DNA from: Elusimicrobiota bacterium
GTDB lineage: Bacteria > Elusimicrobiota > Elusimicrobia > UBA1565
Direction: 5' to 3'
Assembly: GCA_043819795.1 (NCBI GenBank)
Contig: JBDREN010000083.1
Coordinates: 5,298 to 69,297 of the forward strand
Length of the DNA stretch: 64,000 bases
Every line of letters starts with the position of its first letter. The stretch's first letter is position 1. Positions 3,379 through 59,397 of the stretch are shown here, one piece after another. The position numbers and the translations under genes are program-made. Under the pieces are notes generated by a model, which had not been told where the DNA came from, did no database searches, and saw only the letters and a program-made list of their open reading frames with translations.

Positions 3379-4625
3379 GGGATCTCCTCCCGTATTCGTT
3401 CTTCGAAGGCCGACAAGGGCCGGACATGGACGGTGCCGGAGCCGTCCCGGCCCATCCATACGTCGTCGCCCCGCAGCGTGAAGCCGGACAGCGGCGCCCC
3501 CCCCTCGTTCAAGAGCGGGAGGCTGTAGACGGCCAGGACGCCCAGCCTGGCGTCGAGCCGGTGCCTGTAGATCATCCGCGTCTCCGAGTCGGCCGACCAG
3601 AAATACGAGCCGTCCTTGAAGATGGAGGAGGGGGCCCTGCCCGGGGCCGGATAGCTCTCGAGCACCGTCAAGCCGGCGTCGATCCCATGCTGATAGAACC
3701 GCCGCTCCGAGGCGTCGCTGGACCACAAGTAGCGACCGTCGAAATAGACCCCGGCGGGGTTCGGTCCCGGGCTCCGATAGGCGCGCACGAGAGAGAAACG
3801 CTCGTCGAGGCGGCGCTTCTGGATCTCGCGCTTCCAGGAGTCGCATACGTAGAGATGCTCGCCCGAAACGGCGATCCCCGTGATATGCGTCTCCGGCAGG
3901 TGAACGGAGCGGACGACCTCGAGGCGGTTGCCCCGGCGCTCGTACTCGTAGACGCTCTGCGTGACCCAGTCGGCGCTCCAGAGCCGGTCCCCGCGCCAGA
4001 CAAGCGCCGTGGCGTTCTCGTGGGGGATGGCGAAATCCCTGCCCGCCTGCCGTCCGTAGAGCGTCCAGAGGATCCAGGCGCAGAACGCTCCCGCGATGAG
4101 CGCGCCCGCCAGCAGCCACGGCCACCCGGACGCTTCGCGCTTCGCCGGCCCGGCGGACCGGCCGCGCGCCGGCAGAGGCGCGGGACGGGCGTCCAGCGGC
4201 GCGATGACCCCGCGGACCTTCTCCGCGAGACGGCGTCCGAGGACTCCCATCCCTTCCGGAGCCTTGCCGCCGGTGAGAACGCGGTCCACGGTCTCCCTCA
4301 GCTCCCGGTTGCTGAAAGGCTTGGCCAGATAGTGGCTCGCGCCCAGCTGCATGACTTCCACGGCCGACTCCACGCTGCCGTAGCCGGTCACCATCACGAC
4401 CGGCGTCGTCCCATCGACCTCCCGAAGCTTGCGCAGGATCTGCACGCCGTCCATCCCCGGCAGGCGCATGTCCAGCAAGACGAGGTCCGCGCCCTCGCGG
4501 GACAAAAACTGCAGCGCGGTGGGGCCGTCCCCGGCCTCGTAGACCTGGTGACCCAGCCGGCTAAGGACGTTCGCGAGCGCCATCCGCATGTCCGCTTCGT
4601 CGTCTACCACCAGGATGCGTGCCAT
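3375..4625 (-). CDS. response regulator with N-terminal REC domain, one TM helix and a C-terminal extracytoplasmic repeat (beta-propeller-like) domain
   Basis: MARILVVDDEADMRMALANVLSRLGHQVYEAGDG..LVLLDMRLPGMDG = CheY-like receiver; TM WPWLLAGALIAGAFCAWILWTLY; 5 repeats with (L/F)(W/Y)xxD(W/S) motifs. Confidence 0.85.
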   Translation of the reverse strand: MARILVVDDEADMRMALANVLSRLGHQVYEAGDGPTALQFLSREGADLVLLDMRLPGMDGVQILRKLREVDGTTPVVMVTGYGSVESAVEVMQLGASHYLAKPFSNRELRETVDRVLTGGKAPEGMGVLGRRLAEKVRGVIAPLDARPAPLPARGRSAGPAKREASGWPWLLAGALIAGAFCAWILWTLYGRQAGRDFAIPHENATALVWRGDRLWSADWVTQSVYEYERRGNRLEVVRSVHLPETHITGIAVSGEHLYVCDSWKREIQKRRLDERFSLVRAYRSPGPNPAGVYFDGRYLWSSDASERRFYQHGIDAGLTVLESYPAPGRAPSSIFKDGSYFWSADSETRMIYRHRLDARLGVLAVYSLPLLNEGGAPLSGFTLRGDDVWMGRDGSGTVHVRPLSAFEERIREEIP

Positions 4626-7600: not shown

Positions 7601-10600
7601 AGTTCCCGCATCCGCCGCGCCAGCTCCGCCTCGAGGCGCTCGCGCTCAGCGGCGAGCTCCTCCTCTTTCTGCCGGACCGCCGATTCCACCTCGGCCGCGC
7701 GGTCGCCGTGCTCGCTCTCCAGCAGCGACCGCCGGTGCGCGAGCTCTTCTTGGAAAGCCTTGCGCTCCCGCTGCGTCCGGGCGGAAAGCTCCGCGTCCCG
7801 CTTGGCGAACCCCGCGCGCAGCTGTTCCTCCCGCGCCGAGTAGGCGCGCTGCAGATCGGCCTCACCCTCCCGCGCGCGCTCCTCGAGCGCGAGGCGAGCC
7901 TCCTCGAGCGCCTTTTCCTTGCGCGCGAGCTCGTCCTGTCGCTGCTCGGCGGCCTGATCGAGCTGCTTTTCCTTATATATGAGCTCGGCCTGGCGCTCGG
8001 CAAGGACGCGCTCGTGCTCCTCGTACGTCTCCTGAAGCCGCCGGCGCTCCTCGACGAGCGCGGCGCGCAGCTCGCTCTCTCGAGCCGCCAACGCCGAGCG
8101 CGACTCCTCCTTCCGCTTCTCGAACTCGCGCTCGAGCCGCGCCTCGCGTTCCTGCAGCCTCTTTTCCTCGTCCATCCGGGACGTCTCCAGCTCGCGCTTC
8201 TTGCGCCCCGTCTCGTCCTCGATGCGGGTGCGCTCGCGCTCGATGGCCTCCTCCCTCCCGCGCAACACCAGGTCCATCTCACGCTGACGGTCCTCGAACG
8301 CCCGGTGCATCTCGGCGCGCTCGCTCTCCGACTCCACCTTGCGCCGCTCAAGACGCTCCATGGCCTGGGCGCGCTCGTTGTTCGCGGCGTCCTCGCGCTT
8401 CCGGAAGTCCGACTCGAGCTCCGATAGACGCTGCTGGTGGGCCTTCTCCAGATCAGCCTCCTGGGACCGGATCGCCTTCTCCAGCTCGAAACGCAGGCGG
8501 TCCAGCTCACCCTCCCTTCGGTCGTACTCGGCCTCAAGCGCGGCGCGCTGCTTCTCAAGAGCCGCCTCGAGCTTCCGTCGAGACTCGTCCTCCCAGCGGG
8601 CCTCGCGCTCGTTGAGACGCTCCGTGAAGGACCTGAGCTCGGCCGCCAGGCGGTCCTCGGCCTCGCGCTTCGAAAGATCCTGCTTATGCTCCCATTCGGC
8701 CTTCAACTCGGCCTCGAGCTGGAGGAAGTTCTTCTGAAGCGCATCTTCGCGCTCCCGGTAGAGAGCGTCGAGAGCGGCCCGCTCGCGGGACTGATTGTCC
8801 TGCATCTCGGAGACCATCGCCTGCTCGCGCCGACGCAGATCCTCGCCAAGAGACTCGTCCTTGGACTTGTACTCAGCCTCGAGGGCCTGCCTCCGCGAGT
8901 CAAGGTCCTTGACGCGCGACTCCAGCTCGGCGGCCTGCGCCGCCATCGCCTTGCGATGCTCCTCCTGGAAGTGCTGGTACTCCTTCGCGATCTCCCTGCG
9001 CTGATGGTCCAGCCAGGCGTCGTTGCGCTTCTTCATCTCCGCGCGGGACTCCGCGAGGCGGCGCTTGTACTCGCGCTCGAGATTGTCCTGCTGGTTCTTC
9101 AGCTCGGCTTCCCGCTGGGCGATCGCCTCGCGCATCTCGCCTGCGATGCGCTCGGTCTCGTAGCGTATGCGAGCGCGATAGCTCTCGCGCTCCTCGTCGA
9201 CCTTCTGCAGCAGCTCGCTCTCACGCTGGCTCCACCGCTTCTCGAGCTCAGCCTCGCGCTCGAGATAGGACTTATCCAGCCTCGTCTCCTTCTCCCGCAT
9301 CTCCTTTTGGAGCTGCGCCTGCAGCTTCTCCAGCTCCAGCTGCTTGCGCTCGTATTCCTCCTCCAGGACCGCACGTTGCGACTCGAGCTGCGCCGCCCTC
9401 TTGACCTCGAACTCGGCCTCCGACTGGCGGACCTTGCGCTGGATCCCGTCCTCCTGCTCCTTGAGCGAGCGTTTGAGCTTCTCGGCGGACTCCTCCTCCA
9501 GGAGTTGGGCCTTGTGCGCCCGGTCATCCTTCAGCTGCTTCTCGAGGCTCACATAGTTCGAATGCAGGGTCTCCTCGCGGCTCCGGTAAAGCTCGTCGAG
9601 GGACTGACGCTCCCGCGTCAGGACGACCTGCTGCTCCTCGATGAAGCGTCTCTCCCTGAGACGCCACTCGTCGGCGAGCTCCTCCTCCCGCTTCCGGTGG
9701 TAAGCCTGGAGGGCGTCGCGCCGCTTGGCCAGCTCACCCTCCCGCTCGTTCGACTCGGCGTTGAGCGCCTCGAGGTGGGCGCGGGCGTGCTCCTTCTGCT
9801 GCTCCCGTTCGCGGATGGTCATGCGGCGCTGGCGCTCCAGCCACTGCTCCTTCTCCTTCTCGGACTCGGCCAGGGCGTCTCTCTTCCAAGCTTCGAACCG
9901 CACCGCCAGCTGCGAGTCCGCCTCCGCGAGGGCCGCGGCGTGCTGCTCCCGCTCCTTCTGACGCTCGGCCTCGAGCGCCTGCACGGTCTCCGCGAAGCGC
10001 TGCGCCTGCGCCTGGAGGGCTTCCTGCCGCCGCGAGAGGTATTCCCTCTCCTTGCCCGTCCATAGCTCCTGAAGGCCGCGCTCCATCTCGATGTACTTCT
10101 CCTCGCGCTGGGCTTCTCGGCGCTTCTGGGCCTCCTGAATGGAGACGCGCTCCGCCTCGTGCCGGCGCTCGCGCGACTGCAGGTCCTCCCAGAGCGCCCG
10201 CTTCTCCGCATCCAACTTCTCGAACTCTTCGCGGACGCGGCTCAGCTCCAGATCCTTCTCCGAAAGCTGCTTCTCGCGCTCCAGGAGCTCGCTCTGATGC
10301 CCTTCCTTCAGGTTCTTGACCCGAAGCTTCCACTCGGCCTCGCGCCGCTCGTACTCGGCGTCCAGGTGCCTGGCCTGCTGGAGCAGATGCCGGCCCTGCG
10401 CCTCCTTGAGCGCCCGGACCTCCGCGGCGTGAGCGTCCTTGGCTTCGGCCTCCCGGCGATCGTAGCGGTCCTCGAGGTCCCGCTCCAGGCGCGCGTAATC
10501 CTGCTTCATCTTCTCGGACCGGCCGAAGAGATCGGCCTCATCGCGCTGGCGCCGCTGGTCGTGCTCCTCCTTCGTCTTCTCCATCTCCATGCGGGCCGCG

Positions 10601-12225
10601 CGGCGCACCTGCTCCAGCGCGATCTCGTAGCGGCGCACCAGCTCGGCCTCCCGCAGGTGCCACTGCTTATCGAGGTTCTTCTCCTTCTGGATGTACTCCG
10701 AGATCACGGTCTGCTTCCACGTCCGGAACTGCTCCTCGATCGTCTGCTGGGTCCTCTCCAGCTCGGCGACCCGGGCCTGGTAGGCCTCCTCGAGCGTCCG
10801 GTCGCGCTGCTCGAACTGCGACTTCAGGGAAGCCCGCTCGGCCTCGACGGCCTTCTCATGCTCCTCGAGGAGCTCCATCTTGCGGCGCGTCCACTCCTCG
10901 CGCAGCGCGTTCTCCTTCGCCAAGTACTGCTCCTGCATCTCCACGTGCTTGTGCTGGGAGGCCTCCTCGAGCGCCTTCTCGCGCTCTTGCACGCGGTTCT
11001 CGGCCTCCGCCCAGCGGGCGTTGAACTCGGCTTCGAGGGCGGTGCGTTGGCGGTCCCCGTCGCGCTGGACCTCGGCCTCCCGCCGCTCGAGGTCCCGGGA
11101 CCGCGCCTGATACTCCTCCTCGAGGGCCTTGGCGCGCTGTCGCGCCCGCTCGGCGGCTTCCGCCTTTTCCTTCTCGAGCTCGTCCTCGACGCGCTTGAGC
11201 AGCTGCGCCTCCTTACGGATGTGGCTCTGCTGCTGCTGGGTCTCCATCTCGGCGTAACGCGTCTCCACGCTCTTCACACGCTTCTGGAAGTCCTCCTCCA
11301 GCTCCCGACGCCGGCGCTCGAGAAGCCCTTCGATCTCGCGCGAGCGGTCGGCCAGCGCGCGGGCACGCTCCTCGAACTGCTCCTGCACGGCCGTATCCAG
11401 CTTCTCACGCGCATCCTTCGCGCGCTGCCACAAGCCGTTCTCGAGCTCCGCCCAGGCGGCCTGCAGCTCGGCCTCGCGCTTGCCGTACTTCTCCTGCAGG
11501 GCGAGCTCCTTGGACCGGAACTCCCCGAAGAGCTTCTCCTCGCGCTCCTGGAGCTTGAGCTCGCCCTCCTTCGCGGCGGCGGCCAGCACCCGCTGGAACT
11601 CCTCGTTCTTGCGCCTAAGATCGAGTATCTCGCGCTCCTTGAGCTCGAGCTCCGCCTCGCGGTTCTTCAGCGTGTTGAGGATCTCCTCGTCGCGTTTCTG
11701 GCGCAGCCGCTGCACCATATCCTGGTCGCGGTGGAAACGGTTGACGAGCTCGGCCTTCTCGCGCTGGGAGGCCATCAGCTCGGCGTCGCGCTGCTCGAGA
11801 ATGCGCCTGAGCTCCCGCCACTGCTCCTCCTTGGAGCGGTGCGTGCCCTTCCACTGCTGGACCTCTGCCGTCAGGCGGGACAGCTCCTCGTCCATGTGCC
11901 CGCGGTCGCGCTCCACGCGCGTCCGTTCCTCTTCGCGGACCTCGAGACGCACACGGTCGCGCCAGCGCTGCTCCTGATCCCGATGATTCTTGCGCTCCTC
12001 CTCCCAGCCTTTGGACTCGTCCTTCCATGCGGCGACCTGTCTCGTCAACTCCTCCTTCTCCTGCTGGAGCATCTGCTGTCCGTTCTGGGCTTCCTGGAGG
12101 TTCCCCTTGAGGCGCACATTCATATCCTGGAGGTCACGGATCGTGGCCACGGCCCCCCGGATCGCAAGTCGCGCAGCTTCCAGATCGGTTATCTCTCGAT
12201 ATGCCTCTTCATCCCATGGGTTCAT
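4627..12225 (-). CDS. giant (~2530 aa) coiled-coil sensor histidine kinase: ~2250 aa of E/R/K/A/L/Q-rich heptad sequence then HisKA (IAHQIRNPL) + HATPase_c (GTGLGLGVA)
   Basis: Single ORF 4627..12309; real start MNPWDEEAYRE at 12225 supplied by upstream repeat unit (GGGAGGcgaccATGA); no TM segments evident; internal 58-codon tandem duplication. Confidence 0.85.
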   Translation of the reverse strand: MNPWDEEAYREITDLEAARLAIRGAVATIRDLQDMNVRLKGNLQEAQNGQQMLQQEKEELTRQVAAWKDESKGWEEERKNHRDQEQRWRDRVRLEVREEERTRVERDRGHMDEELSRLTAEVQQWKGTHRSKEEQWRELRRILEQRDAELMASQREKAELVNRFHRDQDMVQRLRQKRDEEILNTLKNREAELELKEREILDLRRKNEEFQRVLAAAAKEGELKLQEREEKLFGEFRSKELALQEKYGKREAELQAAWAELENGLWQRAKDAREKLDTAVQEQFEERARALADRSREIEGLLERRRRELEEDFQKRVKSVETRYAEMETQQQQSHIRKEAQLLKRVEDELEKEKAEAAERARQRAKALEEEYQARSRDLERREAEVQRDGDRQRTALEAEFNARWAEAENRVQEREKALEEASQHKHVEMQEQYLAKENALREEWTRRKMELLEEHEKAVEAERASLKSQFEQRDRTLEEAYQARVAELERTQQTIEEQFRTWKQTVISEYIQKEKNLDKQWHLREAELVRRYEIALEQVRRAARMEMEKTKEEHDQRRQRDEADLFGRSEKMKQDYARLERDLEDRYDRREAEAKDAHAAEVRALKEAQGRHLLQQARHLDAEYERREAEWKLRVKNLKEGHQSELLEREKQLSEKDLELSRVREEFEKLDAEKRALWEDLQSRERRHEAERVSIQEAQKRREAQREEKYIEMERGLQELWTGKEREYLSRRQEALQAQAQRFAETVQALEAERQKEREQHAAALAEADSQLAVRFEAWKRDALAESEKEKEQWLERQRRMTIREREQQKEHARAHLEALNAESNEREGELAKRRDALQAYHRKREEELADEWRLRERRFIEEQQVVLTRERQSLDELYRSREETLHSNYVSLEKQLKDDRAHKAQLLEEESAEKLKRSLKEQEDGIQRKVRQSEAEFEVKRAAQLESQRAVLEEEYERKQLELEKLQAQLQKEMREKETRLDKSYLEREAELEKRWSQRESELLQKVDEERESYRARIRYETERIAGEMREAIAQREAELKNQQDNLEREYKRRLAESRAEMKKRNDAWLDHQRREIAKEYQHFQEEHRKAMAAQAAELESRVKDLDSRRQALEAEYKSKDESLGEDLRRREQAMVSEMQDNQSRERAALDALYREREDALQKNFLQLEAELKAEWEHKQDLSKREAEDRLAAELRSFTERLNEREARWEDESRRKLEAALEKQRAALEAEYDRREGELDRLRFELEKAIRSQEADLEKAHQQRLSELESDFRKREDAANNERAQAMERLERRKVESESERAEMHRAFEDRQREMDLVLRGREEAIERERTRIEDETGRKKRELETSRMDEEKRLQEREARLEREFEKRKEESRSALAARESELRAALVEERRRLQETYEEHERVLAERQAELIYKEKQLDQAAEQRQDELARKEKALEEARLALEERAREGEADLQRAYSAREEQLRAGFAKRDAELSARTQRERKAFQEELAHRRSLLESEHGDRAAEVESAVRQKEEELAAERERLEAELARRMRELDASKLQVEKSLRERETQLENAFRAREEGVRSASALRERELRAGFERDRETLAAEQQTLEQAVRARQAELERKTEELESARKRVEDSLRKREQALEESFAQSEAELRDALAMEQQKQEQGVRARQAELERQTEGLGAAQKRVEDSLRKREQALEESFVHREAELRKELADQRTELAARFERERQEQVREIESKSAALAERSRDVEKARAGLEAEYRNRQEELQAAYQARHGELERERAELAAEEVRRSRELESFKSGVAREYRERERALEKAVSEKEAELRRAREEAEAEVSGHLDAQREALREDWAKAKAELEVEVEESRRKLKARETELREAYARKETAMRESVEEREAELERERSDLRQSVAAEREALERARAGLDARRAELERDFRERETALQREHLGREEELQRAWKKREEALLNEVSEAQERNRAELRKSSEEMHVALRDEMARREEGLDAERAALQKEFLHKVEEARRGIRREERARYDRDLQTKEDDLRAQLKEKEEEFRLHAESLEDQLRKREDLLEKQGEERRLAHERDLDAQLEHERRLLRESQRAADEDQARRREELEREMRTVLAEKESALLAANRKRLVVERTRLEAEFDERRKELEEQSAVQVEQTARLQGERLQKQQETASSELHKREAELDARDKALKEREQSGEKRLMDESAQKEAEVERRREEVEELLRGTDKKLRERLKNEEAELERRRRKLDEEMTARERQSQGREDKLAGAEVDIERRQRELRQLRDRLLSGLKPEAETGRLPQVAFETELTDLVFGIAHQIRNPLGIIQSLAEDRLSGLWVGGKERATMDAILRAIGNLRERLEQLTDFTRPLGLKPQALEVEAWIDSAVAEVARQCDEKHIRIVADVAEGVPELRGDSERLKEALLHLLLNSIEAMPEGGTLTIRARYQAARGTVRVEVSDTGAGVAPEHVKDVGRPFYTMKAGGLGLGVAIAKRIVAAHGGSFEFRSKKDAGSTSTVTLSVEAKRG

Positions 12226-12348
12226 GGTCGCCTCCCATGGAGATGGACGCGGCCATCCCCTGCGCGATGCTCGGTCATGGTCGCCTCCCACGGCAGTCGA
12301 CGCGACCATTTCCTGCGCTATGCTCGGTCATAACACTGCCTCCAGGTA
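12222..12348 (-). repeat. two tandem 57-nt copies of SD/start-codon-bearing intergenic repeat (mini-ORFs MTEHSAGNGRVDCRGRRP* and MTEHRAGDGRVHLHGRRP*), with own GGAGG SD, ATGA-coupled to each other and to the giant HK start
   Basis: Reverse complement matches repeat at 50606-50719 and 59231-59397; internal 8-bp inverted repeat ATGGTCGC/GCGACCAT; GGGAGG 6 nt before terminal ATG. Confidence 0.7.
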
Positions 12349-12547: not shown

Positions 12548-12774
12548 TAACAGTCCGTGGCAAAAGTCTTCCGGGGCCTGCGATCGCCTGGATGCGGCCT
12601 GCGCCCGCGTTGCTCCTCGGTCACACCGGGCCCCGGCAGGGGCCCAGTGCCGCACGACCTCAGGAAATGCTTCGGAGCGCTGTCATCCCGTAGAGGGATG
12701 CTACCTCGTCGCGCCTTGGCTCGGCTCGCCCCGGACGATTTCGCCATCCGAAATACTTTTGCCACGGACTGTTA
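12548..12774. mobile_element. MITE-like element: 20-bp perfect terminal inverted repeats TAACAGTCCGTGGCAAAAGT flanking ~187 bp, in intergenic region between two HK genes
   Basis: Left IR 12548-12567, right IR 12755-12774 (exact reverse complement); right IR overlaps stop codon of PAS-HK gene; symmetric spurious ORFs MAKVFR on both strands. Confidence 0.45.
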
Positions 12775-14919: not shown

Positions 14920-15167
14920 CCCGCCTCTTACACGAGCCCCTGTGGCGGAGCGTGGATCGTGCTGGGCCCTCCGGCCCTTTCGATCTCGCCACCCGGGACC
15001 AAGCGGCGGTGCCGGCGGCTTGGGTCCGGGCCTCAGCCGCCTCGGCCCACGCGCTCCTCCGAAAACGCTCCCGACGGGGACCCCCGATCCGCCTTAGGCC
15101 CTAAGTCCCGAGAAAGCATGGGCCCCCCGGCACTGGCCTTCTAGGACTTTTCCCCTATCCTATCGGT

Positions 15168-18100
15168 ATGCGGCGGACCAATGGGCCCAGGTGGGTTCTA
15201 CTCGCGGCCTGCGCGTTGAGCCTCCAGGGCGCCGCCCGCGCCGGGACCGGTCCCCGTCCCTCTCCGAAGAGACTCCAGGAAGAGAAGCTGCCCGGCGCCA
15301 TCGTCGCGAGGCTCCCTGTTCCCGCCGCCTTCGCGTCTCCGGGGGCCCCGGCTTCGACGCTCTCCTCTCCGGCGGTCCTGCTCGCGCGGGAGATCGATGA
15401 GCTGTTCGCCGGCCTGAGCAGTGAGACCAACGACGGCACGCGGGCTCTCCGCCAGCCGGCTCCGGAAAAAGCCCCGCCCCGGGGAACCGGCTCCGGACGG
15501 CTTTCGTCGCGATCGTCTCCCGCGGCGGGAACGCGCGAGCCCGCCGAGGTTTTCGCCGCCCTGGACCGACGGCTCTCCGACATCCGCGCCCGGATCATCG
15601 ATACGATCGACGATCCCGAGGAGGTCGCGATCCTCCTGGCCCGCGTCGACCGGATCCGTGGCGTCCTGGCCAAGCTCCGGAGGGCCGGGGAAACGGGCCA
15701 AGCCCGTTCCCTGTCCGGGGCGATGGCCGGACTGGCGCGGGCCCTCGGGCGGGGGACCGATGACGAGAACCTCTCCAGGTTCGAGACCCTGGTCGACCGC
15801 CTGATGCAAGCGCGGTCGCTGCCCCCCGACCGGCTCGGAACGATCTTCGACAACACGCCCGAGTTCCCGGACAGCGATGTTCTCGCCCCCGTCCCGGCGG
15901 AGGGCTTCAAGGCCCGGGCCCCGCGAGCAAGGGCGAGCGGAGCGGGCGTTTCGCAAGCGGCCCTGTTGGACATCGACCGCTACCCACGGCCCCTGACCGG
16001 GATCCGTGTCGACGGCGGCGTCGTTCCGAAGCCGAGAGGGCCGGGAACCTCGGCCAAGGCCGAGCCGGAGTCCGAGGTCGGCCGCCCACAGCGACGAGCG
16101 GTCACCGCTTCGCAGGGGCTTGAGCGCTCGGCTGTCGCGGCGCTCTCGCCCTTCGCGGGACTGAGCCCGAAAGGCCGCCAGGACCTGTTCCGAAAGGACC
16201 GGGCCGCTCTCAGGCGGGAGCTGCTCGCCGTCGGACTCCGGGCGCTCGAGGAGGGCGACGCGGAGCTCGAGCCGTATCGGGAGGATCTGGACGCCGCGGA
16301 CGGAAGGCTCTCCGGGATGCGTAAAGCGCTGCTGGCCCGGCTCGGGTTCGATGCGCCCCCGCACAACGACCAGGAGCGCAGCGGGCGGTTCGCGACTCTC
16401 ACGAAAGAAGCCCCCCATCTGTCTCTCTATTTCGCGCGGCGCGGGATTTACCAGATGCGCATGCGGCAGGCCCACGGCGAGCATGCCGTGCCGCCGGAGA
16501 CGCGCTTCGCACCCTGGGAACTCGGCATCGAGGACGGCAGCGAGAAAGCCGTCGTCTACGCTACGGCCAAGGACGGCGACCGCACGTTCTACGGGCTGCG
16601 CCGGGAGTTCCAGGACGGCTCCTCGCGCTTCGCGGCGACCGACGGAGCGGAGGGGCTGGTCGTCGTGGTGTCCCCCTCCGATAGCCGCGAGATCCGCACG
16701 CGTATCCGTTTCGACGACCAGGGCCGGCCGGATCGCACCCGGACCTCGATCATCGACACGGGGACCGGCAAGAGGATCCGGGAGGAGATCGCCGACATCG
16801 CGCGGGCGCTCACGCGCTTCGTCGATTACGATCAAGCCGGCGACGCGGTGAGGGTCCTGACCCTGGACAGCGGCACCGGCGAGCAGGTGGTGGAGGACCG
16901 CCGGCAGGGCCGCCGCGTCGCGACCGACAAAGACGGAAAGGTCACGATCACGCCGATCCGAGGCGGAGCCCAAGCCTGGCAGCAGCAGGGCCGGCTCGAT
17001 GAGAGCGGCCGCTTCATCCTCGACCGCCTGGTGCGCGAAGACGGCAGCGTCGTCGAGCGCGTCAGCCCGCACGTCCTGAAGATATCGCGAGACGGCAAGG
17101 CGCAGGGCTATGAGATCGTCGTCGACTCCATCTTCCATGGCGCCCGGGGGCCTGAGCGCGAAGCGGAGTCCTCCAGGATCGCCCGCGAGATCATCGCGGC
17201 GCTCGGCTACCAGGACAAAGACGACCGGCGCTCGCGCCCCCTTAGCAACTGGCTCTCCGACACCTGGACGAAGGACGAGCGGACGCGCGGCGTCGCGATG
17301 ACGGTCGATCCGCGCGGAAGGTTCCAGGTCGTCTACAGCTACAAAGACGGGACCAAGCGCATCGAGCGCGCCAAGTACGGCCTTTCGACCTCGTACGGCG
17401 ACGGGAAGCGGGAGCTCGCGCTCGTGACGCTGAGGCCGGTCCATACCGACCGCCAGGGCCGGGCGCGGCTGGACCCCCGGCGCTACCGCGAGTACCTGGC
17501 CGGCGGCGGCTACAACCAGTGGCATTCCACTTTCGAGTTCAAGAAGGCCGGCTGGTTCTCGAACGCGAAGACGATCGAGCACGTCTCCCTCATCCGCTAC
17601 GGCCGGGACGGAAGCCTTCCACGCCTGGGTCCCGGGAGCGGGGGCGAGCGGGACGGAGACTCCGGCAGCGGCCGCTGGACGGAACGCGGCCGGGAGAAGA
17701 AGGACGAATTCGTCAATGAGGTCGGCGGGACATCGACCTTCGGCATCGTGGGGACCGCGATCCATGAGGCGCCGGTGGTCGGGGACGTCCTGCAGGCCGG
17801 CGGAGCGGTCGGAAAGACGCTCTGGACGGGCATCATGGCGGCTCCGCCCACCTTCATCTATGCGGTCACCAAGGACACGGATTACGGCCTCGCCATGTCG
17901 GGAAGCTACGCGAAGAACCCCCTGGTGAACCGTCTGGTGGGAGACCAGGGACACCTCGACCGCATGGACGGCAAGATGTGGGAGGTCGTCCTTATCGAGG
18001 CCCGCGAAAACCGCCGAAAAGACCTCGATCAGATGGGCTACACCGAGGGGAATACGGACCCGGAGGAGCATCAGCGTTTGCTCTCCCAATGGCGCGGAGA

Positions 18101-20408
18101 CCGCTTCGTGTCCCCCGAGGATTGCCTCAAATCACATCCGCGCGGCTATTGCGATCGGTTCCGGTACAGCAGAGAGGAGCTCATGCGCGCGGTGCGCGGC
18201 TACGGCGCCCTGACCTGGGGCGACCGCCTGATCGAATCGGCCGAGGGCAAGAAGGGCGCGGCCTACTGCGCCACGGCCGGCGCGGGGTGGGGGCTCAAGG
18301 TGTTCGAGAACGTGGGCGAGACGCTCTTCAATCCCGTCATCTGGGCCACTTTCGGCGTGGGCAAGGGAGTGCAGGCCATGACGGCCATGCGCGCCGCGGG
18401 CAACAGCTCGCTCGCGGTCTCCGGCGCGCTCTCCACCGCTCGCGTCACGCACGCGCTCTTGAGCACGACGCTCTACAGCACGTGGGTCGTGGGCGGGGTG
18501 GACAACCTCGGCCAGACCGTGGTCGCGCTCCAGGAAGGCGACAGAGAACAGGCATTGAAGAAGTCGGCCGACCTCGGCACCGATCTCTTCTTCGTCTGGA
18601 TGATGGCCCGCGAGTCTCGCAGCCACAAGCTCCGCCAGAAGGCCCGACAGGCGCTCCTAAAGGAGCAAAGGCTGATCACAAAAGAATACAAGGCCGCTTC
18701 CAAAGCGGTCCGCACTAAGTCCGCGCACGCGACGAACGGCAAAGCCCCGGTCAAGAGCGCCGAGAAGGCGCTCCAGTCCAAGGCCGCGCACGCGACGAAC
18801 GGCAAAGCCCCGGTCAAGAGCGCCGAGAAGGCGCTCCAGTCCAAGGCCGCTCACGCGACGAACGGCAAAGCCCCGGTCAAGAGCGCCGAGAAGGCGATCC
18901 GTTCCAAGGCCGCGCACGCGCAGAAGCCCGCGAAGCCGGCCCCCGAGCCAAAAACGGAGGCCGCACGGGGCAAGACGACGGGCAAGGGCGAGACGCGGGC
19001 CACGAGCGGAGCCCCCAAGAAGCCGGCGCCGAGGACGATCAGGGAGCGCATGCACGAGTGGAAGGCCCGCCTGGTGGAGAACAAGCCCAGGGTCATGGAC
19101 TTTCTGAAGAAGCGTATGCCTAAGCTCAAGTCCTCTCAAGCATCCAAGGCCAAAGCGCTCAAGGCGCGCCAGACCGCAAGGCACACCAAGGCGAACCGGG
19201 CGAAGAAGACGGAATCCAAGTCCGGCAAGAATGCGAAGAGGGGAGGCGAGTCGCCGCTCCGGAATCTCGGCGAACGAGTCGTGGCGGTCGCCAAATCCTT
19301 GATCTCGAAGGGCAAGACGACGGGAAGGAAAGCCCGCAACGCCGGCAAGCTCAAGAAGGCCGCTGTCGCGCCCCGCGCAATCCTGAGTCCCGAGCTCAAC
19401 AGGTTCGCCTCCGAGACGGAGCCCGTACCCGCACCGGACCCGGCGGACTCGGACGCGCGATACACCGCCGATGAGGAGCCTGGAGAAGAGGCCGGCGTGG
19501 ATCCCGGGCAGCGCGGAGAAGACGACGGCCGCGCCGCCCGGGATGCCGCGAAGCCCCGGGCCGAGCCCTTGATCGGAGCCGGCCGCGCGGCGGATTCTCC
19601 CGCCGGCGCCCCGGATTCCGGCGGGGATCAGGCGAGCCCAGGCTCAGGCGGCGATTCCGGAAGCGAAGCCGGCGGCGGCGAGACCGGTTCGGGCACGGGA
19701 AGCGGCGCTCTGGGCGGCGGAAGTCTCGCGAGCGGATCGGGGAGCGGAGGCTCGGGCGGCGGCCGCAAGGGTGCGGGGCGGAATCCCCGCGTGCATGGGC
19801 GGGCGGGACAGAAGTTCGACGGTGGACGGACTACCGTCGCTCGCCTGACCCCGACTTCCCCCCGGCCGTTGCCCTCCCTGCAACCGGAGCGGCCCCGAAT
19901 CATGCCGAGAGCCCCCGAGCCCATAGATCCTTACCGCCAAGCGCACGCTTCGCCGGAGCGCCGGTCCGTCCCGCCAGTCGAGGAGAAACCCGCGCCCCGG
20001 GTGTCCAGGAAGAGTTCGCCGCCCGGGTTCAACGCGACGGGCGGGTCGGGCGGGTCTCTAGCGCCCGGCGGCCCGGAGTTCAAACCGCGGGACCCGTTCC
20101 CCGAGGGCAGGAAGGCGGCTCCGCCGGCGACACCTTCCCCGCCCCGAACCGAGGCGCGCAGCGGCGCTCCCGCCGCCGCGGCCGCCTCTCCCGCCGCGCA
20201 CGACGGCTTCTTCGAGATCCCGCGACACCGCCTCCGCCCGGCCGGCCACCTCCCCAACGGCCGCCTTCCCGAACGGGGGCAAGAGAGCCCCTACCGCGCG
20301 CACGCGCTCAGCCTCCTGCTGGAGCTGGCCGGGCTGGGGGCCGCGATCTACCTTTTTAGGCTCTCAAGATTCCCGTTCCTTATCGGCATCGCGCGCAAAC
20401 GTCTCTGA
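15168..20408 (+). CDS. giant secreted/membrane-anchored protein (1746 aa): signal peptide, large unknown domain, 3x21-aa tandem repeats, lysine/alanine-rich histone-H1-like basic region, G/S-rich and P-rich low-complexity region, C-terminal TM anchor
   Basis: Single long ORF; N-terminal MRRTNGPRWVLLAACALSLQGAARA; C-terminal LSLLLELAGLGAAIYLF; contains two in-frame copies of the 45-nt GC palindromic repeat. Confidence 0.7.
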   Translation: MRRTNGPRWVLLAACALSLQGAARAGTGPRPSPKRLQEEKLPGAIVARLPVPAAFASPGAPASTLSSPAVLLAREIDELFAGLSSETNDGTRALRQPAPEKAPPRGTGSGRLSSRSSPAAGTREPAEVFAALDRRLSDIRARIIDTIDDPEEVAILLARVDRIRGVLAKLRRAGETGQARSLSGAMAGLARALGRGTDDENLSRFETLVDRLMQARSLPPDRLGTIFDNTPEFPDSDVLAPVPAEGFKARAPRARASGAGVSQAALLDIDRYPRPLTGIRVDGGVVPKPRGPGTSAKAEPESEVGRPQRRAVTASQGLERSAVAALSPFAGLSPKGRQDLFRKDRAALRRELLAVGLRALEEGDAELEPYREDLDAADGRLSGMRKALLARLGFDAPPHNDQERSGRFATLTKEAPHLSLYFARRGIYQMRMRQAHGEHAVPPETRFAPWELGIEDGSEKAVVYATAKDGDRTFYGLRREFQDGSSRFAATDGAEGLVVVVSPSDSREIRTRIRFDDQGRPDRTRTSIIDTGTGKRIREEIADIARALTRFVDYDQAGDAVRVLTLDSGTGEQVVEDRRQGRRVATDKDGKVTITPIRGGAQAWQQQGRLDESGRFILDRLVREDGSVVERVSPHVLKISRDGKAQGYEIVVDSIFHGARGPEREAESSRIAREIIAALGYQDKDDRRSRPLSNWLSDTWTKDERTRGVAMTVDPRGRFQVVYSYKDGTKRIERAKYGLSTSYGDGKRELALVTLRPVHTDRQGRARLDPRRYREYLAGGGYNQWHSTFEFKKAGWFSNAKTIEHVSLIRYGRDGSLPRLGPGSGGERDGDSGSGRWTERGREKKDEFVNEVGGTSTFGIVGTAIHEAPVVGDVLQAGGAVGKTLWTGIMAAPPTFIYAVTKDTDYGLAMSGSYAKNPLVNRLVGDQGHLDRMDGKMWEVVLIEARENRRKDLDQMGYTEGNTDPEEHQRLLSQWRGDRFVSPEDCLKSHPRGYCDRFRYSREELMRAVRGYGALTWGDRLIESAEGKKGAAYCATAGAGWGLKVFENVGETLFNPVIWATFGVGKGVQAMTAMRAAGNSSLAVSGALSTARVTHALLSTTLYSTWVVGGVDNLGQTVVALQEGDREQALKKSADLGTDLFFVWMMARESRSHKLRQKARQALLKEQRLITKEYKAASKAVRTKSAHATNGKAPVKSAEKALQSKAAHATNGKAPVKSAEKALQSKAAHATNGKAPVKSAEKAIRSKAAHAQKPAKPAPEPKTEAARGKTTGKGETRATSGAPKKPAPRTIRERMHEWKARLVENKPRVMDFLKKRMPKLKSSQASKAKALKARQTARHTKANRAKKTESKSGKNAKRGGESPLRNLGERVVAVAKSLISKGKTTGRKARNAGKLKKAAVAPRAILSPELNRFASETEPVPAPDPADSDARYTADEEPGEEAGVDPGQRGEDDGRAARDAAKPRAEPLIGAGRAADSPAGAPDSGGDQASPGSGGDSGSEAGGGETGSGTGSGALGGGSLASGSGSGGSGGGRKGAGRNPRVHGRAGQKFDGGRTTVARLTPTSPRPLPSLQPERPRIMPRAPEPIDPYRQAHASPERRSVPPVEEKPAPRVSRKSSPPGFNATGGSGGSLAPGGPEFKPRDPFPEGRKAAPPATPSPPRTEARSGAPAAAAASPAAHDGFFEIPRHRLRPAGHLPNGRLPERGQESPYRAHALSLLLELAGLGAAIYLFRLSRFPFLIGIARKRL
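15899..15946 (+). repeat. 45-nt GC-rich palindromic repeat copy, in-frame inside giant secreted protein (EGFKARAPRARASGAG)
   Basis: Match to consensus GGAAGCCTTCAACGCCTGGGCCCCGCGAGCGAGGGCGAGCGGGAC. Confidence 0.6.
17606..17657 (+). repeat. 45-nt GC-rich palindromic repeat copy, in-frame inside giant secreted protein (GSLPRLGPGSGGERDG), flanked by GGACGGA direct repeats
   Basis: ggacggaagccttccacgcctgggtcccgggagcgggggcgagcgggacgga. Confidence 0.6.
18717..18905 (+). repeat. 3 x 63-bp perfect/near-perfect tandem repeats encoding KAAHATNGKAPVKSAEKALQS
   Basis: Units start 18717, 18780, 18843; partial fourth unit. Confidence 0.8.
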
Positions 20409-24305: not shown

Positions 24306-25730
24306 GTGCCGAAGCCGGAACCGACACCGCGGCCGGAGACCCCGCCCATAGCGGGACGGAAGCCTTCAACGCCTGGGCCCCGCGAGCGAGGGCGAGCGGG
24401 ACGGACGCGCCGGCTGCTGGCCTTCGCGTTGCTCGCCGGGGCGTTGGCGCGCTTCGCAACGGCATTCCTCTATTGGGAAGCGCCGCTCAGCCCGGGCGGC
24501 GATGACCTCCAGTACCATGAGCTGGCCTCCGGGATCGCTTCCGGGCGGGGATACCTCCTGCAGGACGAGCCGAGCGCCTACCGCGGCCCTCTCTACCCCC
24601 TCTTTCTGGCGGCGGCCATGCGGGTGACGGCCAGCGACGCGCCCGGCGTCCTCCGGCTCATCCAGGCGATCCTGGGCCTGCTGGCCCTCTGGCTCGTCTA
24701 CCGTCTAGGCGCGGCCATCCATTCCCCCGAGGCGGGCGCCTGGGCGGCGATGCTCATGGCTCTCTATCCGGAGCAAGTCCTGCTCCCGACGTCGCTCTAC
24801 ACCGAATGCTTCTACGCCTTGATCCTGCTCGTCGTGGCGTGGGCGCTCGCATGCTGGCGGCAAGACCCCCGGCCGGCGCGGCTCGCGGGGCTCGGCGCCG
24901 CGATCGGCCTGAGCCTGCTGACGCGTTCGACGCTGGCGGCCTTGCCCGTCCTGCTCGCGGCTTGGCGGCTCGCGGAGCTCCGCGCCGGACGACGGTGGCT
25001 GCGGGAAACCGCCCTTCTCGCCGTGACCGTTCTGCTGCCGCTCACGCCCTGGATCGTCCGCAACTACGCGCGTTTCGGCAGGGTCATCCCCATGGAGACC
25101 GGCGTCGCCGGTCCCGCGTTATGGTACGCCTCCAAGGGCTGGGTCACGGCGCCCTCGGACATGTCCAGCGTGGAGCCGATGAGGACGATGTACCGGAGGC
25201 TTCCGCATACCGAGTGGGACCGCTTCGCGACGCCGCGAGCCCTGCGCAACATGCGGGCCCGCCCGATGGCGTATCTTCTCGGATGCGCGAAGAGGGCTCT
25301 CTACCTTTGGACCACCGCATACACCCCCTACCTGCTCTACTACCACCACCGCCTCTCGGCGTGGATGCAGAGCGGCGGCCGCTGGAGCTGGATCGCCCTG
25401 GGCGACTGGCTCCTTCGGCTCTGCCTGATCCTGCCGGGGGCCTGGGTACTGCTCCGCAGCGCGCGAAAACGCGGCGGAAGCCTTCAGCGCCTGGGCCCCG
25501 CACCGGCCTCCAACGCAAATCCAAAGGGAGGCCGGCACGGCGCCCCTACCGGGGTGGACGCCGCGAGCACGGGCGAGCGGGGGCTTTGGGCGGTGGCCGG
25601 TTTGGTCCTATACTTCCACATCCACGTCTTCGCGACGGTCTTCGTCCGCTACATGGCGCCGGTGACGCCCCTGCTGTGCGTCCTGGCCGGGGCGGGGTGG
25701 GCCGAGTGGCGAGCCTCGCGCCGAGGCTAA
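24306..25730 (+). CDS. GT-C family membrane glycosyltransferase (ArnT/PMT-like, GT83-type); start uncertain (GTG), N- and C-terminal regions each carry a copy of the 45-nt repeat
   Basis: Multiple TM helices, motif LSPGGDDLQYHELASGIASGRGY; repeat copies at 24353-24406 and 25474-25583 in frame. Confidence 0.7.
   Translation: MPKPEPTPRPETPPIAGRKPSTPGPRERGRAGRTRRLLAFALLAGALARFATAFLYWEAPLSPGGDDLQYHELASGIASGRGYLLQDEPSAYRGPLYPLFLAAAMRVTASDAPGVLRLIQAILGLLALWLVYRLGAAIHSPEAGAWAAMLMALYPEQVLLPTSLYTECFYALILLVVAWALACWRQDPRPARLAGLGAAIGLSLLTRSTLAALPVLLAAWRLAELRAGRRWLRETALLAVTVLLPLTPWIVRNYARFGRVIPMETGVAGPALWYASKGWVTAPSDMSSVEPMRTMYRRLPHTEWDRFATPRALRNMRARPMAYLLGCAKRALYLWTTAYTPYLLYYHHRLSAWMQSGGRWSWIALGDWLLRLCLILPGAWVLLRSARKRGGSLQRLGPAPASNANPKGGRHGAPTGVDAASTGERGLWAVAGLVLYFHIHVFATVFVRYMAPVTPLLCVLAGAGWAEWRASRRG
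24353..24406 (+). repeat. 45-nt GC-rich palindromic repeat copy (gggacggaAGCCTTCAACGCCTGGGCCCCGCGAGCGAGGGCGAGCgggacgga), translated as [15 protein letters not shown]
   Basis: Best-conserved exemplar; 8-bp flanking direct repeat GGGACGGA. Confidence 0.65.
25474..25583 (+). repeat. 45-nt repeat copy split by a ~62-nt nested hairpin insertion (CCGGCCTCC..GGAGGCCGG)
   Basis: 5' half ggaagccttcagcgcctgggccccgca and 3' half cgcgagcacgggcgagcggggg separated by insertion. Confidence 0.5.
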
Positions 25731-32600: not shown

Positions 32601-32927
32601 TCGGGCCCGCGGCGTCCCCCCGGGACCGACGCCCTTCGGACCGAAGCGCAGGCTGTGACGCCCCCGGCGGGCGCCGTTGAAGCGCCGTACCGCGGCGCGC
32701 GCCCGCCGAGACCTCCCCACCGCGCGCGTGCGGGGCGGCTCGGGCCGGTCCAGGCCGAAGCGTCCGGCGTCGTCGCGATGATGCGGCTCCGGACGCACGG
32801 CGAACGCGGCGCGGGCGCCGCCCGCCATGAGCAGCGCGGCCAACGCCCCGGAAGTCATCAACACACGGGCCCCGCGAGCCGGGGCTCGCGGGGAGACCGC
32901 CGGAGGCCTGGATACCCGGCGCATCAC
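29637..32927 (-). CDS. secreted zinc metalloprotease (fungalysin/thermolysin-like, HEYVHFV) with C-terminal T9SS-type sorting domain (ends KKVIVVK)
   Basis: HExxH motif VRHEYVHFV; propeptide-like N-terminus; C-terminal ~80 aa matches Por secretion CTD pattern (FNPSRGEFTTIRYEI...GIYLLNLEAPG...KKVIVVK). Alternative start 32858. Confidence 0.75.
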   Translation of the reverse strand: MMRRVSRPPAVSPRAPARGARVLMTSGALAALLMAGGARAAFAVRPEPHHRDDAGRFGLDRPEPPRTRAVGRSRRARAAVRRFNGARRGRHSLRFGPKGVGPGGTPRARVEAREVAVAFLREYGPELGLRADELRLELGRTAGGIHHLLFEQVVEGVPVEFSRVKVHLDEAGAILSLQSSYRPGVRESPVPRLDEAAAALRAAADLGGAAPRPRGGRLVFFPLRGSDAVRLAWRFRVSGRGGGWIYYVDAGSGEILLRYNDLRFQAACASSGTVTGNVYDIDAGTSPLSVRPFKNQRVYVVDSSTFALTDANGFFCSQTAGKIFTSLQGPYVHVANFNVPNAHYDNGGGKWKTFSTPLSSPHPYSNDAVLISTINATPQDAPGAVKLLPVFSSFDVGGIEFFAGDLEITDDDQVAILDADGYPVAGYLGNRGPFNGAAVAGTQLRLRLKSNESGTRNGFDISHSSYLYLTNSPGSSDNATATFTWTTARTFDGTEDEINLFYHINRMHDYFADGPNSADGADIDKPVPVMARAGPGLSNAFYDPLHENLMFGDVGNSLALDASVVRHEYVHFVVDQIYPIINFGQFGAISEALADYFAASSLGNSAIGTYANVGFQSEGALRELDCPSETACVIFPAHWTGAIHDDSRMISQAVWGLRGQLMTQLGAANGQACADGLVFQALFFFPDSFEDFLEAMLEVDKRAAALVAACGGDNLRGGDIVNAFALHNIVLNPPDEDVYEPNNGIQSATDITTAPVISARIYPAADLDYYAFGAAEGLIRLTLTLPQDPGFPGTYRAYSMSLIDSRYEIVRKAGPVIDINPTLGGYCPDTGCRTSSRKVVLEYVSPRSDQYFLVVSAPEGDEYALVTNNNSTEFYGLEAEYSRAGPVASSIVAASFDNDVISFEVRVATFVTSQNYMFHHARLRDHALRVLPGTATDGASPFLTFVSSSNGLGRVSGTLALASGFNERFRAVGTVHLEVFGGNPLGHVQSLGFSPAINLTADRTALTPFNNVFNPSRGEFTTIRYEIQSAGHVRLRLFTRTGRHVLTLIDEFKPAGKGSVDWSGANRLGSRVASGIYLLNLEAPGIRETKKVIVVK

Positions 32928-37415: not shown

Positions 37416-38773
37416 GCCGCGGCGTCCTGCTCGCGGCGTCGTGCGCCTTGGCCGCCGTGGCCGCCGCGGCGCCCCTATCGGGGAGCCGCCCGGAGGGCCC
37501 GCCGGCACGCTCACGCGCTTTTGTGGCAAGCGCGGTACTGCACACTCCGGCGCCGGAAACACCCTCGGCACCGGCCGGTCCCGGCGTCGTTCCGGGGCCG
37601 GGTCCTGTGCCGGGCTCGCCGCCGCGCGCGGCCGCGGCGGAGTCCCTCACCCCCGCGAGCCCGTCGGAACCGATCATCGCGGTGGGCATCGCCCACAGGG
37701 TCCCGAAGATCACGGTGCGTCCGGAGGGCCGATTCTCGGTCATAGACGAGACGACCGGCGAGATGAAGCGGCTCGAGCGCGGACGCGCCTACACGGTCGA
37801 AGCCGACGAGGGAGAGCGCCTCATCCTGGGGCCCTTCCTCTTCTTCGGCCCGACGCGGCTCCTGCCCGGCCGGCCCGAGGAGTATGTCCTGATCGGGGAG
37901 CGCAAGTACCGCGGGAATCTGGTTTTCCGCCCGAATAAAGACGAGACGATCACCGTCATCGATGAGTTGGGCCTCGAAGAATACCTCTACGGGGTCCTGC
38001 CGACGGAGATGAGTCCCGAATGGCCGCTCGAGGCTCTCAAGGCCCAGGCCGTCGTCGCGCGCACCTTCGCGCTCAACAACCTCGGCAAGTACTCTTCCTC
38101 GGGCTACGACCTGACCGACGACTCCCGCAGCCAGATCTACACCGGGATCACGATCGAATCCGTCCGGGTCCGGCGAGCGGTGAAGGAGACGGCCGGCCAA
38201 GTGATCTATTGGCGCGGGAAACGCCTCCCGGTCCACTTTCATTCCTGCTGCGGAGGCCGCACGACCGATCCGGCCTCGGTCTGGGGCCCGTTGCGGACCG
38301 CCGACGCCGGAGAGCGGGGCGCGGCCGAGAGCCCGCGCCCCCTGCGCGGCGTGCGCGATCGCTACTGCCAGGACACGCCGCACTACGGCTGGACGGCGTA
38401 CTTCAGGAAAGACGACATGCTCCGGGCGCTCCAGCGCGGCGGCCACAACGTGGCCACCCTCACGGCGATCAAGCCCGGGCGCCGGACCTCTTCGGGCTAC
38501 CTCCGGTACCTCCGCCTCAAGCTCGACGGCGCCTGGAGACGCGTGGCGGCCAACGACCTGAGGATGTGGCTCGGCCCCGCCGAGCTAAAGAGCACGCGGA
38601 TACGACGGGTGACCCGCCGGCGCAAGGGCTTCGAGTTCGCCGGGCGCGGCTACGGGCACGGCGTCGGCCTGTGCCAGTGGGGAGCCCGCGTCCAGGCCGA
38701 GCGAGGCGGCGGATACCGCGATATCCTGGGATTCTATTTCCCCGGAGCGGAAATCGGCCCGCGGGAGCGCTAG
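37412..38773 (+). CDS. SpoIID/LytB-domain protein (amidase enhancer-like)
   Basis: Signal peptide, proline-rich linker, SpoIID motifs [39 protein letters not shown]. Confidence 0.75.
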
Positions 38774-38774
38774 C

Positions 38775-38825
38775 CACGGAAACCTTCAACGAGCGGACCC
38801 CGCGAGCGAAGGCCGGCGAGACGGA
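38775..38825 (+). repeat. 45-nt GC palindromic repeat, divergent copy 1 of tandem pair in spoIID-queA spacer
   Basis: cacggaaaccttcaacgagcggaccccgcgagcgaaggccggcgagacgga. Confidence 0.5.
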
Positions 38826-38829
38826 GGCC

Positions 38830-38888
38830 GGGACGGAAGCCTTCAACGCCTGGGTCCCGCGAGCAAGGGCCAGCGAAGCGCGGTCCCG
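38830..38888 (+). repeat. 45-nt GC palindromic repeat, copy 2 of tandem pair
   Basis: gggacggaagccttcaacgcctgggtcccgcgagcaagggccagcgaagcg. Confidence 0.6.
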
Positions 38889-50609: not shown

Positions 50610-50719
50610 CCGAGCATAGCGCGGTTTCGGCTGCGTGCCTCAGCCATTCCCTCGCGTTTGGCCGCAAACGCTTCGGTCACAGGAATGGTCGCGTCGATCG
50701 CCGCGGGAGGCGACCATGA
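50606..50719 (+). repeat. 114-nt long form of SD/start-bearing intergenic repeat: mini-ORF GTG..TGA (37 codons) whose GTG overlaps upstream GT4 stop (GTGA) and whose TGA overlaps downstream GT2 ATG (ATGA)
   Basis: Near-identical to 59231-59344; internal hairpins GCGTTTG-gccg-CAAACGC and ATGGTCGC..GCGACCAT; GGGAGG 6 nt before ATG 50716. Confidence 0.7.
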
Positions 50720-59234: not shown

Positions 59235-59397
59235 CCGAGCATAGCGTGGTTTCGGCTGCGTGCCTCAACCATTCCCTCGCGTTTGGCCGCAAACGCTTCG
59301 GTCACAGCAATGGTCGCGTCGATCGCCGTGGGAGGCGACCATGACCGAGCATAGCGCAGGAAATGGTCGCGTCGATCGCCGTGGGAGGCGACCATGA
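59231..59397 (+). repeat. long (114 nt) + short (57 nt) tandem units of SD/start-bearing repeat between hldA and kdsB; GTGA overlap with hldA stop, ATGA between units, ATGA into kdsB
   Basis: Direct comparison with 50606-50719 (4 substitutions) and 12222-12335. Confidence 0.7.

Follow-up and report, generated by a model that had tools for sequence, protein, structure and literature searches.

In a 64,000-nt stretch of contig JBDREN010000083.1 from a metagenome-assembled genome (MAG) of an Elusimicrobiota bacterium (GCA_043819795.1; the whole stretch is called the window here), the gene for a GT-C fold glycosyltransferase of family GT39 carries a 108-nt in-frame block that contains a copy of a dispersed 45-nt hairpin repeat, split by a further 63 nt. 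Judged by its orthologues, the block is a lineage-specific insertion in this gene. It is composite and arose by successive events, though probably not from two different elements. We give roughly even chances to the reading, drawn from sequence comparison, that the locus is a partial head-to-tail dimer of one repeat family and that its inner 63 nt are not an unrelated element. The locus is laid out as follows.

24306 to 25730, plus strand: GT-C fold glycosyltransferase gene (GT39/PMT_2), host of the insertion, identified by Pfam, NCBI identity and colinearity with orthologues.
25476 to 25583, plus strand: whole insertion block of 108 nt or 36 codons, read in frame as GGSLQRLGPAPASNANPKGGRHGAPTGVDAASTGER, with edges ambiguous by a few nucleotides.
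25475 to 25501, plus strand: canonical 5' module of the repeat (unit 1), with one mismatch to the consensus, from profile and pattern search.
25502 to 25526, plus strand: 25-nt linker, made of an A, then CCGGCCTCC (the left hairpin arm), then the A-rich 15-nt loop AACGCAAATCCAAAG.
25527 to 25564, plus strand: proposed unit 2, a diverged 5' extension plus 5' module consisting of GGAGGCCGGCACGG, CGCCCCTACCGGGG and TGGACGCCGC, from a fixed-register match.
25538 to 25563, plus strand: second small predicted hairpin within the inner segment, with a GCCCC-TACC-GGGGT core, from RNA folding.
25565 to 25583, plus strand: canonical 3' hairpin half, GAGC-ACGG-GCGA-GCGGGGG, with one mismatch to the consensus, in the loop.

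The split copy at 25474-25583 is present as the initial annotation had described it, and its membership of the 45-nt family is confirmed by a profile of that family. The profile matches 25469-25501 (E = 1.5e-5, model positions 5-37) and 25556-25582 (E = 0.073 window-wide, model positions 29-55), and the two matched halves lie on the same strand and in the right order with 63 nt between them. The 5' half reads CGGAAGCCTTCAGCGCCTGGGCCCCGC (25475-25501) and the 3' half GAGCACGGGCGAGCGGGGG (25565-25583). Within the former, the family's 5' module GGAAGCCTTCAACGCCTGGGCCCCGC is matched at 25476-25501 with one mismatch and scores 40 bits in a leave-one-out position-specific scoring matrix (PSSM), inside the range of genuine copies; a pattern search with this module finds the split copy together with the copies at 24358 and 38835. 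GAGC-loop-GCGAGCGGGG, likewise recovered by a pattern search, follows downstream in the same orientation, and once reconstituted the copy can be aligned from end to end. Since the left half ends at 25501, after CCCCGC, and the GAGC of the right half begins at 25565, the inner DNA comprises 63 nt (25502-25564, 21 codons), so that the reported interruption stands and its proposed length of about 62 nt is corrected by one; the position of the junction is ambiguous by 4 nt (CCGC). Deleting the inner 63 nt restores a copy that differs from the consensus at only 2 of 45 positions (43/45 identical). As removal of this segment rebuilds a canonical copy, more than one event at the site is the natural reading.

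The 9-bp inverted repeat that had been noted inside the segment (CCGGCCTCC/GGAGGCCGG) is likewise found, at 25503-25511 and 25527-25535 around a 15-nt loop. Its left arm repeats 25527-25535 exactly in inverted form, the right arm being provided by the proposed unit 2, and the pairing extends imperfectly to 19 nt (16/19 complementary) into the outer repeat. The open reading frame (ORF) 24306-25730 remains open across the block, and the translation first quoted for it is correct; the inner segment is stop-free in five of six frames. Assignment of the host to the GT-C glycosyltransferases agrees with a match of its product to Pfam PF13231 (E = 5e-12) and with 100% identity to MFH1724139.1, a shorter form of 428 aa named [quoted passage not shown] at NCBI.

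Comparison with orthologues shows that the whole block is inserted DNA. All 10 orthologues (39-52% identity) lack exactly these 36 residues, which appear as one clean 36-column gap corresponding to 108 nt, that is 45 + 63. Both flanks of the block are colinear with the 10 orthologues, and the conserved last helices follow downstream in frame. With the block removed, SARKR-GGLWAVAGLVLYF is colinear with ERKR-AGVLAVACLILYF of the orthologues. One orthologue is also positional, lgt coming after GT-C and lying on the opposite strand, just as it does in the window; no copy of the repeat family was found in this syntenic locus (L013, GT-C next to lgt) together with L014, 41 kb in total. The orthologues in addition lack the residues of another repeat copy at the 5' end of the gene (24349-24408). 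As all ten are without the block, we read it as an insertion. An AlphaFold2 model of the GT39 protein, built on the orthologue alignment (mean predicted local distance difference test score [pLDDT], 85.6; predicted template modeling score, 0.86), places residues about 391-418 in a coil with pLDDT of 47-55 between the last two helices, 359-390 and 419-443. This low-confidence coil suggests that the block forms a tolerated loop, and it is probably translated as a disordered, mildly basic one.

We therefore consider it very improbable that the block is no insertion at all, being either ancestral sequence between two partial repeats or an artifact of MAG assembly. The source is indeed a metagenome-assembled genome, and repeats can mislead assemblers. 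However, every orthologue is without the whole block and its flanks are colinear in one frame; the DNA on either side is part of one gene, and conserved residues follow the block; the extra DNA is in frame and stop-free; and a 45-nt repeat is below the usual k-mer length of assemblies.

The resemblance on which the dimer reading draws lies in the last 38 nt of the inner segment (25527-25564), for which the evidence that they are another 5' region of this family, much diverged, is good but not conclusive. Aligned without gaps in the register set by the following GAGC, these 38 nt match the copy at 38834 (GGAGGCCGGGACGG AAGCCTTCAACGCC TGGGTCCCGC) at 24 positions and the consensus at 20, and genuine family copies share 21-33 of the 38 positions preceding GAGC among themselves. 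By block, the 24 matches to copy 38834 fall as 13/14, 4/14 and 7/10, the last block agreeing at 8/10 with the consensus TGGGCCCCGC. The match has P = 2e-4 against random 38-mers of the window (maximum over 10 copies), P = 1e-3 against composition-preserving mono- and dinucleotide shuffles, and P = 2.3e-4 with the PSSM. A scan of registers from -12 to +12 gives a single peak of 24 matches at offset 0 and at most 20 elsewhere, and the two flanking blocks of the proposed unit score +9.4 and +7.1 bits. The motif GGCCGGSACGG occurs four times in the window, against 0.58 expected, with two occurrences at 5' ends of copies. In the GT39 frame, the proposed unit 2 reads GGRHGAPTGVDAASTGERG and copy 38834 reads GGRDGSLQRLGPASKGQRS.

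Because the last 38 nt resemble a second 5' extension plus module, the GT39 locus can be read as a partial dimer that runs from a 5' module through the linker and a further 5' extension plus module to the 3' hairpin. This layout is like that of a head-to-tail tandem pair of copies at 38769-38884, an in-window precedent for the two-unit arrangement, whose second unit begins with GGAGGCCGGGACGG; the difference is that the GT39 locus has the 25-nt linker in place of the 19-nt 3' hairpin of unit 1.

Several observations weigh against such a dimer. The proposed unit 2 has a total score of -2.7 bits, compared with 15-45 bits for genuine copies, and its central 14 nt are unrelated to the family (4/14, -19 bits). 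Local alignment of the inner segment with the consensus, with a synthetic dimer or with the tandem pair is not significant (p = 0.13-0.55), these tests covering at least the first 36 nt of the segment; the fixed-register test is the only significant one, and it was devised after the similarity had been seen. The outer halves agree with the consensus at about 96% and the unit 2 module at about 46-63%, an unevenness that simple tandem duplication would not give. In addition, the first 25 nt of the inner segment are left unexplained, and no donor copy is seen in the 64-kb window. Local alignment of the inner segment with the reverse complement of the consensus is not significant either, and the linker (25502-25526), read position by position, has no similarity to the 3' half of the family and no other copy in the window.

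The initial annotation had proposed successive insertions, with a separate hairpin element of about 62 nt lodged in the repeat. Its first half holds in that the block is composite, inserted and in frame; the inner piece as a different element is not supported, having no other copy in the window, the metagenome scan or the plasmid records and a family-like 3' portion of 38 nt. The independent copies that this proposal called for were sought without success: no second copy exists in the window (up to three mismatches, blastn-short, nhmmer), the stem of the inner hairpin with its following bases has 0 matches in a metagenome pattern scan, and blastn of the locus against plasmid records returned chance matches only. 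A weak nhmmer match of the inner segment at 12631-12677 was unconvincing on reading. The comparison with GT-C orthologues, also suggested at the outset, showed that the sequence is not common to them (10/10 without the block). Thus, of the two findings that had been named as jointly speaking against nested insertion, the lack of other inner copies is observed and a sequence shared by the orthologues is not.

A distinct nonautonomous hairpin element, some 53-63 nt long and resembling a MITE, a REP or a PATE, or else the excision scar of an insertion sequence, within the hairpin arm of the repeat is rather unlikely in our view. It would fit the near-consensus copy that is rebuilt once the 63 nt are removed. 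It would also fit the predicted RNA fold of 25502-25563 (62 nt), which forms two hairpins with a dG of -33.9 kcal/mol and beats 200/200 shuffles (z = -3.55). The junctions may be taken in the same sense: a perfect 4-nt duplication (CCGC) is common to both, and the preceding nucleotides match imperfectly at 8/10 (P = 0.006), so that TGGGCCCCGC/TGGACGCCGC may be an imperfect 10-bp target duplication; moreover, insertion sequences are reported to target REP sequences (PMC1525189). Against this, the outer family has 11 loci in the same 64 kb in which the inner segment has no second copy, and the metagenome and plasmid searches yielded nothing beyond chance. The segment has no terminal inverted repeats, its inverted repeat being internal, and perfect 9-bp hairpins with loops of 3-20 nt number 15 in the window compared with 12.8 expected under a first-order Markov model, so a 9-bp hairpin alone is not unusual in this DNA. 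A foreign element would also leave the spacing unexplained: GGAGGCCGGCACGG precedes TGGACGCCGC by exactly 14 nt, the distance found in canonical copies.

Two further histories keep the extra DNA within the family or the locus itself. The 108-nt form might be a long subfamily or progenitor, ordered as 5' module, linker hairpin, degenerate 5' module and 3' hairpin, from which the 45-nt form arose by deletion between the two direct CCGC-ended modules. These modules are direct repeats with the same CCGC end and a natural substrate for deletion, and small bacterial repeat families vary widely in size (PMC10969869); yet none of the 10 other copies in the window is long and the second module has diverged too far for a recent partnership with the first, which makes this history quite unlikely. 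We see only a slim chance that the segment is a one-off filler from replication or repair at the hairpin, by fold-back or template-switch synthesis with no donor element. This would explain why the left arm exactly repeats the adjacent 9 nt in inverted form and why the imperfect inverted repeat reaches 19 nt and takes in bases of the outer repeat, and a copy in a PfkB kinase gene likewise has extra DNA, in which 10 nt of its downstream flank recur in inverted form. However, fold-back synthesis covers at most about 19 of the 63 nt, neither the A-rich loop nor the CGCCCCTACCGGGG block has a local template, and a flanking inverted duplication is present at only 1 of the 10 other loci.

Under the partial-dimer reading, a canonical and young near-consensus copy would first have entered the loop between the last two GT39 helices, adding 45 nt. 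The 63 nt would have been added later at the foot of the hairpin, after CCCCGC, and would derive at least partly from a diverged member of the family. Nine of the first 25 nt would be the inverted complement of the 5' end of the second unit, creating the 9-bp hairpin, and 15 would form the A-rich loop. A possible route is that a break at the hairpin was repaired or recombined on a paralogous copy, with its 5' module and some upstream flank being copied; such paralogue-templated repair would account for a right junction that is seamless and in register, a left junction that is abrupt and upstream sequence that is unique. Alternatively, a second unit may have inserted by self-targeting. By either route we infer that the extra DNA came from another, diverged family member. 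As the additions of 45 and 63 nt are multiples of three and stop-free in five of six frames, the gene stays intact.

The family itself is described by a profile built from 8 copies, which finds 10 full copies in the window with E values of 8e-17 to 6e-12 in addition to the two split halves. Eight of the full copies lie on the plus strand (including the tandem pair) and two on the minus strand.

15892 to 15951, plus strand: copy in frame in the 1767-aa ORF 15105-20408.
17602 to 17661, plus strand: copy in frame in the same 1767-aa ORF, with the 5' extension GGCCGGGACGG.
24349 to 24408, plus strand: uninterrupted copy at the 5' end of the GT39 gene, the best profile match (E = 8.4e-17), lying in an N-terminal tail (with a GTG start at 24306) or in the 5' untranslated region.
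32842 to 32898, plus strand: copy whose 10-bp stem is perfect, lying antisense to a protease-like gene at its 5' end.
38769 to 38884, plus strand: head-to-tail tandem pair with a period of 57 nt, between a SpoIID-domain gene and queA.
51465 to 51519, plus strand: copy forming the C-terminal tail of a GT2 gene, with the stop codon at its 3' edge.
56542 to 56598, minus strand: antisense-oriented copy, in frame in a gene for a PMT_2-like and TPR membrane protein (55779-58094).
58942 to 58999, plus strand: copy in frame within a heptose 7-phosphate kinase (PfkB) gene, from alignment with PDB 4e84 and translation.
61785 to 61836, minus strand: copy between the pyrG stop and the conserved kdsA start, in an N-terminal extension or the 5' untranslated region.

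Each unit measures 45 nt, or 57 nt with the 5' extension, and consists of the 5' module GGAAGCCTTCAACGCCTGGGCCCCGC and the 3' hairpin CCCCGC-GA-GC-loop-GC-GA-GCGGGG; the consensus is stop-free in five of six frames. The hairpin is paired in 71% of alignment cells compared with 32-46% in slid controls, and no significant covariation was detected in it. Perfect 8- to 12-nt terminal direct repeats exactly 45 nt apart are carried by 4 of the 11 copies (background P about 0.003 each), namely 17603-17656 (CGGGACGGA), 24349-24404 (AGCGGGACGGA), 58937-58993 (CGCGCGGGGCGG) and 56546-56598 (AGCGGGGC), with lengths of 11 nt in copy 24349-24408 at the 5' end of the GT39 gene and 12 nt in the PfkB copy. 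The 3' member of each pair is the 3' arm of the hairpin, and these repeats may represent target-site duplications, with GCGGGRCGG as the preferred target, or a part of the unit. An occurrence of GGCCGGGACGG at 3442-3452 was rejected as a repeat copy.

At least five copies lie inside coding sequence, most lie inside ORFs and three are at gene starts. Aligned with PDB 4e84, the PfkB kinase has 34 residues where 4e84 has 3, which shows that the family is tolerated within conserved enzymes. The PfkB copy (58913-59010) also has about 30 extra nt on its 5' side, including CGATCTTGCC, an exact inverted copy of the downstream flank GGCAAGATCG, and the total PfkB insertion relative to 4e84 is about 26-31 residues; a flanking inverted duplication as a general feature of the family was dropped, being found at the PfkB copy only. 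Copy 51465-51519 gives the last ~17 residues of the GT2 glycosyltransferase. Copy 32842-32898 has a compensated GAGC/GCTC in its stem and an in-frame ATG; it covers the start and signal-peptide region of the protease-like gene, which has an FTP propeptide motif. For the GT39 protein, the NCBI start is a TTG at codon 47 of the ORF, with which most of the orthologue-conserved first helix is lost; a start at the GTG at 24306 would keep this helix and would turn the repeat copy 24349-24408 into a translated N-terminal tail.

Searches beyond the window did not recover the family. At the Rfam gathering threshold only a tRNA was found and the repeat matched no family above threshold; weak CRISPR-DR23 and miRNA matches were dropped as they were not reproduced at other copies. 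The repeat was not found in GTDB species representatives, a collection without the source MAG, where a scan with its 5' half gave two matches, taken as chance, with no extension beyond the pattern. A scan of Joint Genome Institute (JGI) metagenomes gave 10 matches, which we regard as chance since none has the 3' hairpin. Searched against 1.84 billion representatives, a frame-B peptide profile gave only two matches, and inspection of one of them showed a tandem-repeat protein with no relation to the family. When translations of the inner segment and of the repeat were concatenated, no match was found at E <= 10, in searches that had no power because even the protein itself was not recovered.

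Among known systems, Rickettsia palindromic elements (RPEs) are similar in that short palindromic repeats lie in frame in unrelated genes while the host protein is kept, here GT39 and the heptose kinase. RPEs are described as palindromic repeats in frame in housekeeping genes and read through as peptide (PMC10969869, PMC3184786); their length is given as 105-146 nt (PMC3184786), or about 105-150 nt. They differ in their hosts, which are AT-rich obligate intracellular Rickettsia, whereas the present DNA is a 68% G+C Elusimicrobiota MAG; the window unit, furthermore, is 45-57 nt long, has 8- to 12-nt terminal direct repeats in some copies and has no Rfam match.

Mycobacterial interspersed repetitive units (MIRUs) are present as single units or as short arrays arranged head to tail. 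The tandem pair 38769-38884 and the proposed GT39 dimer fit this habit, and the window family resembles MIRUs in unit size, in its short direct repeats and in combining dispersed single copies with a tandem pair of period 57. MIRUs are G+C-rich units of 40-100 bp with internal inverted repeats and short direct repeats (PMC3184786). However, MIRUs lie between the genes of operons in Mycobacterium, whereas at least five copies of the window family are in coding sequence, and the two differ in phylum and have no sequence relation.

Repetitive extragenic palindromic (REP) repeats, BIMEs and REPINs are, like the window family, short G+C-rich hairpin repeats. REP-type repeats are described as short G+C-rich hairpins that cluster and attract further insertions (PMC1525189, PMC3116915), and REPs carry a GTAG or CGTC tag (PMC3733652). 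Unlike REPs, which are extragenic and dependent on the transposase RAYT, the window family is often intragenic, with no conserved tag in its alignment and no transposase among the window ORFs scanned. [quoted passage not shown] MITEs such as Coxiella QMITE1, ERIC and BOX differ from it in having terminal inverted repeats and usually more than 100 nt; the window family has a 3' hairpin and no terminal inverted repeats, 4 of its 11 copies carry 8- to 12-nt direct repeats, and no transposase was found among the window ORFs scanned.

The surrounding DNA has a G+C content of 65-73% in 2-kb windows. The ORFs scanned encode GT9 heptosyltransferases, KdtA, LpxK, heptose kinase, KdsB, PyrG and KdsA as well as Lgt, RuvCAB, QueA, Tgt and SecDF, with envelope and housekeeping functions, and no transposase was found among them. 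Other kinds of repeat are also present. The 1767-aa ORF 15105-20408 has a coding-like G+C content at third codon positions and no Pfam match, carries its two repeat copies in different frames and contains a 63-nt tandem array at 18689-18925. On the minus strand, the 2567-aa ORF 4627-12327 is filled with degenerate repeats, among them a tandem duplication of 174 nt at 7096-7443, and its product may be a coiled-coil protein, judging by the repeat pattern. In addition, we observe a second dispersed repeat of ~114 nt between genes at 50606-50719 and 59231-59344 (96% identical). The palindrome GCGTTTGGCCGCAAACGC lies within it, and its end, GGGAGG-N6-ATG, coincides exactly with the start codons of kdsB and of the GT2 gene. 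It seems to supply the ribosome-binding site and the start codon; the copy at 59231-59344 is followed by a partial re-duplication of the element.

The split copy alone is a small curiosity. For annotation, the repeat accounts for unusual inserts of low complexity and for wrongly placed start codons in this MAG. More speculatively, and doubtfully on present evidence, the family could be a self-targeting, frame-neutral mobile hairpin element, each event adding exactly 15 codons, without stops in five of six frames, and new units landing on old ones; the 3' hairpin arm would then be duplicated from, or matched to, the target, as the 8- to 12-nt direct repeats 45 nt apart would suggest. If this were true, disordered peptide loops would stack in essential envelope-biogenesis genes and the GT39 locus would be a snapshot of the process. 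If the family is confirmed genome-wide, read-through selfish repeats of the Rickettsia style would extend to G+C-rich uncultured Elusimicrobiota with a unit of only 15 codons, and the GT39 locus would show how such units pile up at one site to give longer new protein loops.

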